From Eledone cirrhosa (lineage: Eukaryota): 64,000 nucleotides of DNA. The stretch covers positions 280,612,001-280,676,000 of the forward strand of contig OZ024742.1 in the NCBI GenBank assembly GCA_964016885.1, read 5' to 3'. The position numbers and the translations under genes were made by a program. Under the pieces are notes generated by a model. It was given only the letters and a program-made list of their open reading frames with translations. It ran no database searches and had not been told where the DNA came from. This document shows positions 2,495 through 64,000 of the stretch, in pieces; positions within the stretch are counted from its first letter, which is position 1, and each line of letters begins with the position of its first letter.

Positions 2495-2719
2495 GTAATA
2501 ATAATAAATTTGAAGACTAAAATCCAAAGAGGGCTCTATAAGGATAAATATATATCAAATATATAAGAACCGTAGAGCAAATATTTATTAAAATAACAGA
2601 TTAAGGTTTAAGCAAAGAAAAGCTGCTTTCACCCTTAACGGGATCTTCTGAGTTTCAGAAGATCCCGTTAAGGGTGAAAGCAGCGATTCTTTGCTTAAAC
2701 TTTAATCTGTTATTTTAAT
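2495..2719. mobile_element. Short fold-back PLE-type end in (TA)n, with hammerhead
   Basis: Inverted arms 2587-2651 and 2655-2719 plus about 90 nt unpaired extension 2495-2586; same family at 23265, 27455, 50755. Confidence 0.8.
2651..2701 (+). ncRNA. Minimal type I hammerhead-like ribozyme, U4A core variant
   Basis: AGTTT CAGAAGA TCCC-GTTAA-GGGT GAAA GCA-9nt-TGC TT AAACT; stems I, II and III pair. Confidence 0.65.
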
Positions 2720-2884
2720 ATATATATATATATATATATATATATATATATATATATATATATATATATATATATATATATATATATATATATATATATA
2801 TATATATACGTATATATATAACCAAACTTCGGACCATCATACGTGTCTGTCCCTAATTGACACTTTTCATATATATATACAATT

Positions 2885-4935
2885 AGACATAGCGAATTAC
2901 TACGCGTCAGTATCACCTGTAATAGTGAACAAGGCACTCATGAGCGCCATGGCCAAGTCCAACCTCATTAGGGAGGAGGCAAGCCCCATAATAGCAGCTA
3001 GAAAGACGCTACTTAGCTTCGAAGACAAGTTATGGGAGAGCAGGGACAGACCCGACAGTTTCGATATTACTATGGGGTCGAGCCACTCTGCGCAGGTGAC
3101 CGACCTGGTGGGGATCTATCTCCTCCAAAGATTAGCGGAGGAGATCCCAGGGGTCGGCGGAGGAATATACAGAGACGGCGCACTTTTTACTTTCAGTTCC
3201 CTAAACCCCAGCCAGATGGAGCGTATGAGGAAGCACATATCGCACATTTTTAAGCAACACGGCTTATCCGTGACAATAGATCCTAGCACTAAGACGGTGA
3301 ATTTCCCGGACGCTACCCTGGAAATGAATACGGGCATCCACCGACATTATCACAAGCTTAATGAGAACCTGCAATATGAACAGGCAATCGAACCACCCCA
3401 AGTCAGTCATCGAAGCAATAGTTAAAGGGATATCTAAATGCGTATCCACCCTGTCGGCCAACGCAGACGTGTTCAACCAGCACGCCGACTATTATAATGA
3501 GGCACTGCGCAGGGCCGATTACACAGATAGCATAGTGTACACCACAGGCAGGGAAGAGCCTAGCGCCGGGTCATGCGGATACGGCATTAGCAGGGCACTC
3601 ACATAGATAGAAGAAACGACCCGGAACTAAACCCATAGAACACGAGTAGCAGCATAGATCACCATAAGACACAGGACCGACAATAGGACAGACGAAGACA
3701 CATACGGGTGACAGACCACCCATAACACATAGTCAAGAGCCCGGCACGCGCACCACATGCGTCGGGGAAACTAGAACTAGGGACAGAGTAAGGACAAGTA
3801 CGGCTCTAGAACCCGGTAGAGGGAACACCCGGCCCGGTAGCTATGGTATAGCCCCGACAACAGCACCACTTAGCATTAACCAGTCTAACAGTACAGCCGA
3901 CAATATGGAATACCTTAGTAAGCGAAAGGCGTAACCCTGACGCCCACAGTAGACATATAGATAGAGGCAACATAGGAGACGAAATTTTGGGCGGGCAAAT
4001 CCCGAGACGGACTCCAGACCCAAAACACATTCACTGCTGCTACAAACACACAGGAAAGAACAAAACTAGATCTAAGGCCGTTACATGGGTTAACGCGCCG
4101 TATTCTAAGCATGTATGCAGCAATATACCAGGCCTCTTTCTCCGAGCGTTAAACGAGTGCTTCCCGCCGTCGAACAGATACTACAAGATTTTCAACCGCC
4201 ACACGGTGAAGTTTTCCTTCTCCACAGCGCCTAACATGGCCAACTACATGGCCATATCCAACGCGGCGAAGATGGGAAACCTCGACCGTGAACCCCGGCG
4301 GCAGAATGACCGTCCATCGGAGCACGGAGGGCCCCTCGCAGACCAGTCTTCCAACCACAACCGGCTTTCGCGGCGGCCGCCACCCCCGCGGAAGTCCATA
4401 CAATCCAACGCCGGGTGGGAATGGATGGCGGAGGAGAGACCACCCTGTCGGCGGAACAACACCCTGAGAATCGGCAGAGGACCCTAGAAGATCAAGGGCC
4501 AGGCACCCGAAATGAACAACATAACGACAGAATATGCAACTGCAGAGCGGGCACGTAGTGCCTCCTGCGGGGAAGATGCTTGACAAAGGGCCTGCTATAT
4601 AAATGTGTGGTTAGCACACACAATACAGAGCGCACAGACATCGGCGCAACAACCACGACCTTTAAATCGCGGATGTATAACCACACGATCACTTTCAAGA
4701 ACCGGAGTAAGAGGCATTCTACTAGGCTGGCAGACCTGGTGTGGGACTTGAAGGACAAAGGTACCCCGTATGCCCTTGAGTGGAGTATCTTTCGGCACGT
4801 GAATGCATACTCGGCTGGAAGCAGAAAGTGTAGACTATGCCTATAGGGGGGGCCATGGAGCTAGTCAGACTGAAGGATGGTGCGGTCAACCTGAAATCGG
4901 AAATAATCATGACGTGCAGACACCAGAGAAGGTGC
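2885..4935 (+). pseudogene. Degenerate GC-rich Penelope-like element, YRDD-type RT plus GIY-YIG
   Basis: DIANYYASVS, FDITMGSSHSAQVTDLVGIYLL, GIYRDG, SNHPKS, WVNAPYS...KIFNRHTVKFSFST, LYKC...IGATTTTFKSRMYNH...CRLCL across frameshifted ORFs 2925-3425, 3361-3606, 3987-4487, 4580-4846. Confidence 0.9.
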
Positions 4936-7334
4936 ACACTCTCTGCATGGAATCCACCGGGAAGCCCAGGCTAAAGGAATGCGGCGGAGCGTGCGCCGAC
5001 CAAGGCGGTGAAACGGGTTGAAGGGATCAGACACCATACCCTGATGACTTTATATGCCCCGTGCGGCAAACGGAAATAACCCGGGATCTATACCAGACAC
5101 TGCACGTCATCCTAGGCAAGAACATCACCTGAGCCGGGGCAGGCTGACCCAGATTCCACTGACTTTCAGTGAAATGCATTACCCCTATAGGACAATATAC
5201 CTCAACCACAGTGACATACTCCAGTATGGCCTGTCCAAGCACCCCCATCCATGTGTATCTTTTCAATAGAGAGTCCATACTCCACACGTATTCTATCTTG
5301 TAACACATATTATATGTTCTGTATATCTTATGTGTACCTCTCCTGTGCATCTCATACGCATACACTTTCCTCATTCTTCTTTTTTATATATCTCTATGTG
5401 ACGTTATATCTATACTTTTAATATATTGCACGATTATTTTATATATATGTATATACGTATGTGTATATATAGATGTATATATATATATATATATATGTGT
5501 AGATATATATGTGTGTGTATATATGTATGTCTATGGTTATATTGTTTATATATGTGCATGCTTATAACAGGATGCATCATTTCATGTATGACCCATTCTA
5601 TGACCCATTGTGTATCTTTATATGACTTTGTGTATATATCCTATTTGTGTATATATATATATATATATGTGTGTATATATCTTTGTAGGCGTGCGTGGGC
5701 CTGTATGTAAATATGCGCATATGTGTAAGAGTGTATATGAGCTAGTGTGTGTGTGTGTGTGTACAAGCACCCAATGTAGCGAAAGGGCTTGTGTTTGTGT
5801 GTGTATATATATATGTAGGTGTATATATGTGTATGTATGTATATATGTATGTGTGCGTGTATGTGTGTGTATATATATGTGTGTGTATTTGTGAGCGAGT
5901 CTGTATGTGTGCCTGTATATGGGCATGTAGGCAGGTGTCTGTGTATGCATATGTCTATGGTTTTTTTATTTGTTCTCCTTAAGTGTGTGTGTATAGCTGG
6001 AGTATATGCGTAAGGATGTTGTTATCTATGTGATTGTGCGTGTGTGTGTGTGTGTGTGCGTGTGTGTGTATATGTGTGTGTGAGAGCGCGCGTGGGCGCG
6101 TAATATACCAAACCCAGTAGTAATTCATCGAACGGTGGCAGAAAGAAAAACTGATGGTCAGTGGAATCCACACCTGTTGGTCAGATTCACGATGACGTAG
6201 AAAAGCAGCAGCCAATAACATAACAGGACGCGCGAAGAGGATGTTTTTGACGCTAACACCCCAGTGAAGTAATTTGCTCGGAAATGATTAGACGTGTCCG
6301 GCGAACCTGCAGGTCCATAATCAGACATATCAACACAATGATCGTGTCTCGAGCTGTCCGCCGGCGAAACAGTTGTAACACAACCAATAAATTGAATTCA
6401 GATGCATCATTGATTTTTCGTTTTATATTATATATATATATATATATATATATATATATATATATATATATATATATATATATATGCGTCAGTATGTGTG
6501 CGTGAGTGTCTTTAAGAATGATTTTTCTCCGAAAAAAAACACCTTTAATCATTGTCAGCTTCATTTCTTGGAGCTGTTCCAGACCCGTATCATATTTCAG
6601 ATTGCTAAAGTATATGACAGATTGCTAAAGTATATGCCCGCCATGCATCTCATGTTTCAGGCTGGAATACACAACGTACTAATAAGCGAAAGTGATATGT
6701 TCTTATCTGTTCACTATTCTATAAATTAGATGATATAATTCTATATATATTTGTCTAAATAAAAGATTTATATAATATGATGCGCACCAGGATTTCTATT
6801 TCAAGATCGTGCGTTCCATAGCTTTTGAGGCTTCTTCTTAAGGATGTCGTGTACAATCCCTTGACAGACGGAGTTAACATTCTCTCATCTTCCCTCTTAC
6901 ATTTGGGATGTTACCGTACATGCATTCATTTGGGATGTGCTTCTGTTGCCACTGCATATCAAGGGCCACGCATAGCCTTTTTAATTAAGTATGCTGATGA
7001 GTTCTTTTATTGGGAAGATGTATTTATGAGGGATCATTAAAATGAAAGAGAAGTCGAGTGGAATGATTTGCATTGTTTTATTTACTGTATCTGTTTAATG
7101 CTATGACATAGCAGATATAGTTACATGTTATATTATTATAACTGTATAACTACTCCGAAAAATATGCATAAATAAAGCATTCATTATTCATAATTGTATG
7201 TACATGTAATTATTACAGAAAGAGGGGAGTGAAAATGGTACACAGGACATGCAAAAGTAGATATAGATAGAGAGAACAAGCTATATATATATATATATAT
7301 ATATATATATATATATATATATATATATATATAC

Positions 7335-62799: not shown

Positions 62800-63270
62800 C
62801 CATAACCACAACGCTATCCACAACCACCAGAAAAACCATCACCACCAACACCACCAACACCACAATTAGCATCACATACACACATCAACCATGTGATCGT
62901 AATAAACAAACATGCACGAATATGAACAAATATATCGAGTAATCAATCCACCATTATCATCATCAACATTATCATAATTATCATCACTATCAATATCAAC
63001 ATCAGAAGTGCCAATATGAGCTCCACTCCAACGAAAACCATCAACTTCACCACCAACATCATTATCGTTATCATCATAATCGTCATGATCAGGATCAGGA
63101 TCATCATCATCATTATCATCTCCATAACTATCACAACCACGTTAACTTAATTAATTTCATCATTGCCATTTCAAGCATCATCATCATGGTTATTATCACC
63201 ACCACCACTGCCATTATTATTTTCGTCACCACCATCACTATCACACTCCCCGACCCGGCAACACCACCAC
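62800..63270. repeat. Degenerate (CAT)n/(CAC)n low-complexity tract
   Basis: Visible trinucleotide periodicity; no credible ORF. Confidence 0.8.
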
Positions 63271-63842
63271 CAAGTTCATCATACATATCACCTGTATTAC
63301 CTTTATGTATCTACATAAAAAGAGATAGACACATAATGGCTGCCGGCAAAATCACACACAACCATAGACAGCCATAAACAGGCAACAGTTGAAAGGCAAG
63401 AAAGAATATTTGTTTATAAGTCTATGCAAGAAGTCTAACAATCATTAGGGAAACGGAATAGAGAAAGGAACAGATAAATAGTATAAATGAAGGATGGCTG
63501 AAAGCTTCATAGGCTGACTATGAAGCAGTGATGCTACAACTGTAGAATCTTGCATACATTAATTTCAACTTGTTCTTATTAATAACTGCACTTATTCTTT
63601 CGAGATTAATTAATTGAGTTACAAACAACGGAAGATCACTTATATGAGTACGTTGCAGATATGTGTGTGTATAGCTCCCAATATTTATATACATACATAC
63701 CCGTATATACATACAAACACACACACATACACACACACACAAATATATATATATATATATATATATATATATATATATATATATATATATATATATATGT
63801 ATATATATATATATATATATATAGAGAGAGAGAGAGAGAGAG

Positions 63843-64000
63843 AGAAGTGGTTACACAACAGTTAGTTAACCCTACAGAGAACAATTGTTTCACCTTAGCG
63901 GATCCTCAGCTCGTGGTGAAACAATTGTTCTCGGTATGGTGAACTAACTGTTGTGTAACCACTTCTACCTAACTCGTCCCGCGGACTGAGTGCTCTACCA
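63843..64000. mobile_element. Fold-back insertion with 3' half of a hammerhead-like motif; runs off the window
   Basis: 63843-63892 mirrors 63915-63966; GAAA CAATTG TT (palindromic stem III); unpaired extension to the window end. Confidence 0.7.

Follow-up and report, generated by a model that had tools for sequence, protein, structure and literature searches.

The window examined here, a 64-kb stretch of the Eledone cirrhosa genome (GCA_964016885.1, contig OZ024742.1, positions 280,612,001 to 280,676,000), carries Penelope-like elements (PLEs) inserted head to head into TA repeats. Two inverted arms diverge in these insertions; one ends at a site that we call T, the other stops earlier at a site X, and the stretch between X and T forms a one-sided tail. 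Such insertions, with two ends fixed within each family, are real and genome-wide, and copies from seven chromosomes end at identical bases. The duplication of a small predicted bulged stem beside both end sites (copy 1 after X, copy 2 after T) is, as far as our searches reach, the new part. The original prediction, made from the letters of the window, had listed this anatomy at 18 sites. It fits at 15 of them, the others being a pair with an 11-nt X arm (37079), a tail-less pair (45405) and a decayed one (50388); the four X sequences that it quoted are present at the places given, the copy at 27455 ending 3 nt later.

Family F1 is Neptune-type (the clade labels Hydra-type and Neptune-type are motif-based and not drawn from a tree). 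Its insertion at 28848..34498 consists of an X arm of 2106 nt on the minus strand and a T arm of about 3550 nt on the plus strand, with 99.9% arm identity and a 45-nt tail, and an open reading frame (ORF) for a reverse transcriptase (RT) with a C-terminal GIY-YIG domain lies at 30922..33933 (plus; 983 aa from the first Met). The ORF is 5'-truncated: in tandem copies on chromosome C6 it measures 1210 aa, and the window copy lacks the first 227 residues. An in-frame Asn-rich low-complexity insert occupies 31021-31530 in the N-terminal part of the ORF, similar to the N-rich inserts described in Adineta Penelope elements (PMC3846280). Between 0.64 and 0.83 of the sampled words of the ORF (30955-33900) occurred in runs of three organisms, with a lower share in others; none of the runs listed was of RNA, which speaks neither for nor against transcription. 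As a lead only, close relatives of F1 may exist in other species. A second F1 insertion at 8245..9760, missing from the original list, has an X arm on the minus strand (8246-9704, about 1460 nt) and a T arm on the plus strand (9705-9760) that begins approximately at X. A hammerhead-like minimal core (CTGACGA-stem II-GAAA, a pattern match) was found in the F1 3' region at 34208..34235 (plus) and is mirrored at 29066-29093 and 8461-8488 (minus). A decayed F1-group palindrome with a partial 30-nt tail lies outside (TA)n at 50381..50537.

Families F5, F0 and F32 contain Hydra-type coding sequence in their long copies; the full-length F5 ORF measures 713 aa (for example in loci L225 and L226). The F5 insertion at 2495..2719 has its T arm on the minus strand, with a tail of about 90 nt (2495-2586), and its X arm on the plus strand (2655-2719); stem copy 1 lies within the tail at 2533..2578 (minus; GCTC, then a TA bulge and GAGC). 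A decayed GC-rich Hydra-type ORF (2820-4900, plus) stands right behind the (TA)n at 2719-2808. In a further F5 insertion, at 27455..27613, the T arm begins at X, so that the arms do not overlap. F0 is present as a tail-only insertion at 2358..2432 (minus; a tail framed by (TA)n on both sides, with its 5' end at X+4 and stem 1 at 2406-2429), as a minus-strand T arm with a vestigial 11-nt X arm at 37080..37198 (stem 1 at 37128-37151), and as the tail-less F0-type inverted pair at 45404..46138, whose left arm reaches the family X while about 15 nt are wanting before X on the right. F32, at 38062..40566, contains Hydra-type ORF fragments and has 979-nt arms of 99.9% identity, a 108-nt tail and stem 1 at 38134-38163 (minus). 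A truncated Hydra-type ORF was detected at 59540..60976 (minus), with YRDD, a CNCTYPDNC linker and GIY-YIG.

The short F0b palindrome at 11519..11735 has an 80-nt tail and an arm identity of 73-76%, and an inverted repeat of it lies at 13725-13940. The whole older palindrome is enclosed in an inverted duplicate (11451-11734 / 13725-14005, 94.7%), which frames a direct repeat (12827-13059 / 13483-13714); the arrangement from 11451 to 14005 is possibly a larger PLE-mediated event with passenger DNA. F3, a non-coding tandem family with a unit of about 530 bp, is inserted at 11814..12517 with a T arm on the minus strand (tail about 105-111 nt) and an X arm on the plus strand that reads through past T at 12104; stem copy 2 lies at 12113-12134 and a hammerhead-like core at 12388-12425. 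The F3 insertion at 40916..41453 has a 102-nt tail, a variant stem 1 (GTTC/GAAC) at 41359-41382, and hammerhead-like cores at 41223-41260 (plus) and 41007-41044 (minus).

F18 at 10096..11402 has a minus-strand T arm whose 121-nt tail stands against (GATA)n, a plus-strand X arm of about 1006 nt and stem 1 at 10149-10208 (minus). F10 was found at 15275..17167, with arms of about 920 nt, a 39-nt tail and an older TG/CA-rich palindrome (73%) nested centrally at 16003-16510, and as a palindrome with a 40-nt tail at 37363..37763. An F31 insertion at 19204..19443 (X arm minus) has a 58-nt tail and the F9 palindrome at 19547..19807 a 37-nt tail, and at 34530..35159 a minus-strand T arm (tail about 28 nt) faces a plus-strand X arm with an internal tandem copy. 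The F4 palindrome at 46160..46500 has a 65-nt tail and ACTC after X, with the GAGY partner absent. F33 at 61866..61962 is perfect over 50 nt and has a 45-nt tail. The F8 palindrome at 63846..64000 has a 68-nt tail, ends past the window edge at 64031 and carries a stem 1 variant with a 1-nt bulge.

Coding content and the two end sites

The families show several features of endonuclease-positive (EN+) PLEs. The window ORF and the C6 ORFs are single frames that combine RT with a GIY-YIG domain at the C terminus, including YVDD and VYSIRC...YIGET; against Pfam the window ORF gives a weak RVT_1 match (E=2e-4, below the cut-off), and its Atlas neighbours have RVT_1 and GIY-YIG annotated on part of their members. 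Tandem or partial-tandem units with pseudo-long terminal repeats (pLTRs) occur, with read-through copies in F3, F5, F15, F18 and F20, and an adjacent inverted 5'-truncated copy with a tail at one end was observed. The Hydra clade motifs RW[KR] and DKT (not DKG) were present in 8/8 aligned rows, and the linker CxCX5C (CNCxxxxxC) in 7/7 Hydra-type ORFs; RWK, DKT and CxCX5C are the Hydra diagnostics given in PMC8557442, section 11. A pattern search found no EHxxxH in these seven ORFs, and absence of CCHH is expected of the Hydra clade. At pattern level F1 has the CX2-5CxxC linker and the endonuclease CCHH of the Neptune clade, with CTNRKCIIC, IRCTEGTC and EHARQHH.

The original prediction had extended the design to tiny non-coding templates, which for the most part did not hold. 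Long copies of F0, F2, F5, F6, F14, F17 and F32 contain Hydra-type ORF sequence, with a weaker link for F8 and F11, and those of F1 contain the Neptune-type ORF. Because long copies of the same families hold PLE ORFs, small palindromes of traceable family are mostly 5'-truncated ends of coding Hydra- or Neptune-type families. Short tandem units that lack a PLE ORF (330-790 bp) were observed for F3, F15 and F20 only, and for F4, F9, F12, F18, F19 and F22 no ORF link was established.

Counts were made on 1.864 Mb, the window plus nine 200-kb stretches from C1-C7 of the 3.0-Gb genome, a non-random sample because two of the nine stretches flank the window. Across it, 176 of 441 inverted repeats had a microsatellite no farther than 6 nt from one outer end and one at a distance of 15-160 nt from the other, an asymmetry that random placement produced 7.65 times on average and 15 times at most. 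The 182 asymmetric repeats formed 50 clusters, and within each cluster X lay at the identical base, mostly at TAT or ATAT. Using natural copies as 29 family references, which were drawn from asymmetric inverted repeats and exclude the low-complexity family F7 (350 matches; also left out of all pairing counts), we placed 210/262 X ends and 214/236 T ends no more than 3 nt from the family mode and 6 of 504 arm ends between X and T. As predicted, X is fixed within a family and not scattered. Twenty-five inverted repeats seemed symmetric; by eye, several of them conceal a tail starting with ATATAT, and about 10 or fewer are truly symmetric.

The two ends were combined by a strict rule. Among 187 classed head-to-head pairs, 173 joined one T with one X end (TX), nine were TT and five XX; for compact pairs (within 1 kb) the share of TX was 143/151 against an expected 50% (p ~1e-33). 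An adjacent inverted partner was detected for about 63% of the microsatellite-abutting arms. The inverted pairs are read from the assembly alone, and artefact is countered only indirectly. The one-X-one-T pairing is a quantified confirmation, and the design itself is published PLE anatomy.

In the original prediction one of the primings took place at the terminus. We found instead that T is not the RNA terminus and lies, as a second TAT site, within a tandem template: tandem copies continue past T with TAT and more element sequence, and the read-through opens with TAT, TATA or ATAT in F1, F3, F5 and F15. In the Neptune-type F1, X and T lie about 21 and 80 nt downstream of the ATG of the next unit, inside N-terminal codons, and TATGGC follows T. 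A 27.3-kb head-to-head insertion on C6 (~30,043,476-30,070,759; L125-L128) is built of X and T arms of about 3.2 tandem 4,133-bp Neptune-type units each; the arms, 13.3 and 13.6 kb long, are 99.9% identical, a 277-bp extra piece lies at the joint, and the frames include five intact ones of 1217 codons with an Asn-rich insert and one of 1068.

We also compared the arms with each other. In 130 pairs, the median identity of X arms was 95.2% to the own T arm versus 87.8% and 87.3% to the X and T arms of other copies, respectively. The centres of F0 palindromes vary by copy, and their arms carry the subfamily variants of the own copy. Joints differ among copies. The palindrome is therefore formed anew at each insertion. 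Joints mostly showed overlaps of 0-4 nt or small gaps, with imprecise mapping, and arm divergence ranged from 0 to 27%.

For arm lengths, 107 of 217 junction records were kept (one T and one X end, reference not exhausted). The X arm was longer in 37, the T arm in 21, and the two were about equal (within 25 nt) in 49; for the 47 long pairs the figures were 21, 20 and 6, with 7.2 equal pairs expected by permutation. Either arm being the longer is the expectation of two separate primings. Young X-longer cases measured 1956 vs 1651 nt (98.7%) and 2300 vs 421 nt (97.4%). The T arm extended more than 13 nt past X in 91/107 pairs and stopped near X (-4 to +13) in 10/107. Among full-length F5 copies, which were counted from 3.3-kb loci and are not an unbiased sample, 15/39 begin at T (-10 to +16), with a T arm as partner ten times and an X arm three times. 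Both pile-ups hint that the two primings occur on one RNA, although a transcription start near T could also cause that of F5. Ribozyme cleavage is not favoured as the cause of T-arm truncation, because the arms pile up at X, and the cut is predicted to fall 15-200 nt upstream. Short arms of F0, F5, F8 and F11 also halt 55-75 nt upstream of X, at a hot spot specific to the family and approximately at the 5' edge of a hammerhead-like region.

A predicted bulged stem beside X and T

In 23/34 long-tail clusters the tetranucleotide RCTC follows X at a distance of 3-16 nt, compared with 0-3 of 26-34 at control offsets, and its exact complement lies downstream in 18 long-tail clusters. The closing pair of the resulting stem was ACTC/GAGT in 10, GCTC/GAGC in nine and a mismatch in one (Fisher p=1.2e-4), and the pair above a 2-nt, mostly TT, bulge was Watson-Crick in 35/45 stems, with 2-8/45 in other registers and 0/20,000 shuffles matching; these p-values overstate independence, because stems share ancestry and the second-stem and metagenome rows were chosen by pattern. 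Hydra-type elements have two predicted covarying stems (RCUC / UU bulge / GAGY) upstream of the ATG; copy 1 lies 4-13 nt 3' of X, and copy 2 about 5-12 nt 3' of T. The second stem follows directly after T, and the ATG after it, in 22 of 30 loci assigned to F5, and also in F2, F17 and F3.

The same order was observed in unrelated metagenome contigs. Their Hydra-type loci L181, L182, L184, L189, L190 and L201 contain a hammerhead core, stem 1, stem 2, ATG and RWK, and 9/9 informative metagenome copy ends precede stem 1 by 1-15 nt or stem 2 by 2-9 nt, a count in which L196 and L198 may be one locus. The published consensus Hydra-2_Amil (Craig et al. 2021) terminates in stem 1 plus tail.

Stem copy 2 of F2 and F17 (L253, L258, L259) has a long extended upper stem of 40-70 nt, and copy 1 is extended in F17, F18 and F5; conservation is restricted to the basal bulged part. 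No Rfam match at gathering score was obtained in seven twin-stem loci, and on the window Rfam gave only sub-threshold microRNA and snoRNA matches to palindromes and repeats, and no hammerhead. By pattern search, hammerhead-like cores (CTGANGA-stem-GAAA) occur in F1, F3, F11, F12 and F20, and those in F0 and F5 look degenerate and non-canonical (CAGAAGA in F5).

Proposed priming on both strands and its rivals

We read these observations as twin target-primed reverse transcription with one predicted stem per strand, at a probability of about 0.68. In the Hydra group, the predicted stems likely direct the reverse transcriptase to its start site on each of the cut strands. The protein would bind each of the two stems, and its GIY-YIG domain would nick both strands of (TA)n. 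Each nicked 3' end would then pair with 2-4 nt of the TAT next to a stem and be extended, and the two cDNAs would stop independently, to be linked head to head and completed by repair. The tail would be the stretch between the start sites of the two stems and its length their spacing, which would explain why it is constant within a family yet ranges from about 35 to 140 nt between families. Of the original prediction, the double priming is supported by the two fixed ends, one of each per insertion, by arms of independent length and by an in vitro precedent in the PAc element; T as a terminus is not supported. A fuller account, possible although we hold it tentatively, is that Hydra-clade integration uses a two-anchor ribonucleoprotein on one RNA, possibly a ribozyme-made circle, with two RT subunits on the twin stems, each priming one (TA)n strand and each cDNA halted by the start site of the other. 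It would fit the T arms piling up at X, the F5 copies that start at T with their T-arm-biased partners, and the multi-unit tandem arms.

Besides the shared ancestry of the stems, several points weigh against twin priming from the stems. RNA folding and protein binding are predictions. RCTC is lacking in 11/34 long-tail clusters and the GAGY partner in F4, and the duplicated stem was not found in the Neptune-type F1 or in F9, F10, F12, F15, F20, F31 and F33 (F1, F15 and F20 by eye or folding). The stem accounts for only part of the families because F1 and several short-tail families are without it; these have the same insertion design and not this signal. The PAc start site was reported to have no homology to the cut DNA and no strand difference (PMC11167929), and the TAT at X and T could mark endonuclease cut sites instead of primer pairing. 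Pairs of TT or XX type make up 14/187. About 37% of arms have no adjacent inverted partner detected; several of these have X arms of 5-20 nt or are tail-only, and others are interrupted or run past the reference. In 64/130 pairs an arm of another copy showed higher identity than the own arm did, over a short compared stretch. Unequal arms could also result from post-insertion deletion, and high own-arm identity from gene conversion.

In one alternative, priming occurs once, at T, and the cDNA folds back, copies itself as far as X and is attached through TA microhomology to the other end of the target. Short arms are near-equal more often than permutation gives (49/107 within 25 nt vs 38.6), variants are common to a copy's own arms, and the arms of the C6 insertion differ by little. 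Fold-back cannot, however, make an X arm longer than its T arm, and the X arm exceeds the T arm by more than 25 nt in 37/107 pairs and by more than 100 nt in 18/107, with extremes of 1488 vs 8 and 2290 vs 400 nt; the equal short arms gather at the family hot spots upstream of X, and fold-back gives no reason for a stem after X. We regard it as quite improbable. Antisense self-priming, as proposed in PMC3846280, could also produce a head-to-head hairpin, from which the endonuclease would cut at X and T, with the stems as DNA or RNA cutting marks; a tail arising from endonuclease-mediated resolution is proposed in PMC8557442. Cut sites would likewise yield fixed ends, palindromic joints are common, and X and T are AT-rich, which suits a PAc nuclease favouring ATT (PMC11167929). 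Against it, PAc RT starts in vitro on sense RNA at both tail boundaries (PMC11167929), inter-arm loops of 1-2.6 kb would require long-range fold-back, and the UU bulge on the 3' side suggests a structure of the sense strand, although it may also be read as antisense. This account appears unlikely.

Least of all do the data suggest that palindrome and tail move whole, as a foldback element or in the manner of a miniature inverted-repeat transposable element (MITE), or that they are an assembly artefact. The recurrent F0 palindrome sizes (191-195 bp), X arms slightly more similar to the X arms than to the T arms of other copies (87.8 vs 87.3%, p=0.02) and joints known from the assembly only would suit these explanations. 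Centres are set per copy, however, arms track the subfamily variants of their own copy and diverge to different degrees, the same-base ends recur between chromosomes and in unrelated metagenome contigs, and arms run on into PLE ORFs; we consider both very improbable. A MITE or foldback DNA transposon in the strict sense, with symmetric terminal inverted repeats moving as a unit, was rejected on the asymmetric ends, the varying centres and the arms that extend into RT ORFs.

The one-X-one-T rule and the independent arm lengths restrict the possible models of insertion. The duplicated covarying stem is a concrete cis-element that predicts start sites and tail length from sequence, and offers a way to match non-coding partners with their helper and to annotate a class of repeats that is very large: the 173 TX pairs amount to about 93 per Mb, or about 280,000 pairs per 3.0-Gb genome if this non-random sample is representative. 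An enzyme that inserts from two sites on both strands, with a short RNA signal and TA-repeat targeting, may be of interest for RNA-templated insertion tools.

Other repeats were also present in the window. A dispersed family of 170-200 bp, resembling short interspersed elements (SINEs), occurs at 21724-21928, 26007-26158, 26818-27006, 47983-48173, 55118-55655 (three tandem copies) and 56428-56538, and its core appears to resemble a cephalopod SINE. By eye, a fragment at 36050-36680 resembles the C-terminus of a Helitron or PIF1-type helicase, and one at 46680-47130 a mariner-type transposase.

Comparison with known systems

Our literature search found no description of PLE twin priming or of the duplicated stem, with closed papers, Repbase/Dfam and supplementary figures outside its reach; the comparison with print also covered bioRxiv 10.64898/2026.07.22.740005, PMC13282606, PMC7229834 and PMC9977147. 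The Hydra clade PLEs of Craig et al. 2021 share RWK, DKT, CxCX5C, the C-terminal GIY-YIG, hammerheads and (TA)n targeting with the elements described here, and a duplicated bulged stem near the ends is unmentioned in the accessible text of that paper, its supplementary figures lying outside the comparison. A canonical PLE unit consists of a pLTR, an adjacent inverted 5'-truncated copy and a one-end tail of 30-40 bp (PMC3846280, PMC8557442). Inverted head-to-head arms, a one-sided tail, tandem pLTRs and microsatellite targets are common to both, as is, in F1, a pLTR and tail overlapping the ORF start. Here, the one-X-one-T rule was counted over about 20 families, and the tails are 35-140 nt long.

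The Poseidon element PAc nicks and extends both strands in vitro, and two internal start sites bound its tail (Frangieh et al. 2024; PMC11167929). PAc thus resembles our elements in its two tail-bounding start sites, the use of both strands, a tandem read-through RNA template and the involvement of a stem-loop. It differs in that it starts inside one AC-rich stem-loop within the ORF, and the inverted pair lies outside its model (PMC11167929). In the Hydra-type elements described here, by comparison, the sites lie 5' of two separate stem copies in the 5' non-coding region and have TAT microhomology.

A further parallel is the twin priming that Ostertag and Kazazian reportedly put forward for L1 in 2001, in which both target strands are said to prime on the RNA and so to cause an inversion, with a variable second site and non-overlapping parts. 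In our elements, in contrast, both sites are fixed, the arms usually overlap, and the inverted pair is the main outcome. An L1-type inversion was rejected, since X is fixed within 3 nt and most T arms pass it.

F3, F15 and F20 resemble non-LTR retrozymes, which are short and non-coding, occur in tandem, contain a type I hammerhead and have PLEs as proposed partners (PMC7229834, bioRxiv 10.64898/2026.07.22.740005), in that they are tandem and lack a PLE ORF; their units are partly longer. By pattern, the hammerhead core was seen in F20 and in the window copies of F3, and not in the F15 unit examined. Unlike retrozymes, F3 bears both Hydra-type stems and follows the X/T rule; these features would link it with one particular clade of helpers. 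PLEs are the sister group of telomerase RTs, and the origin of their inverted copies and one-sided tails has been stated as an open question (PMC8557442, PMC11167929). If the two-anchor account is true, the twin stem would be a portable "start here" signal for a relative of telomerase RT, borrowed by non-coding partners such as F3.

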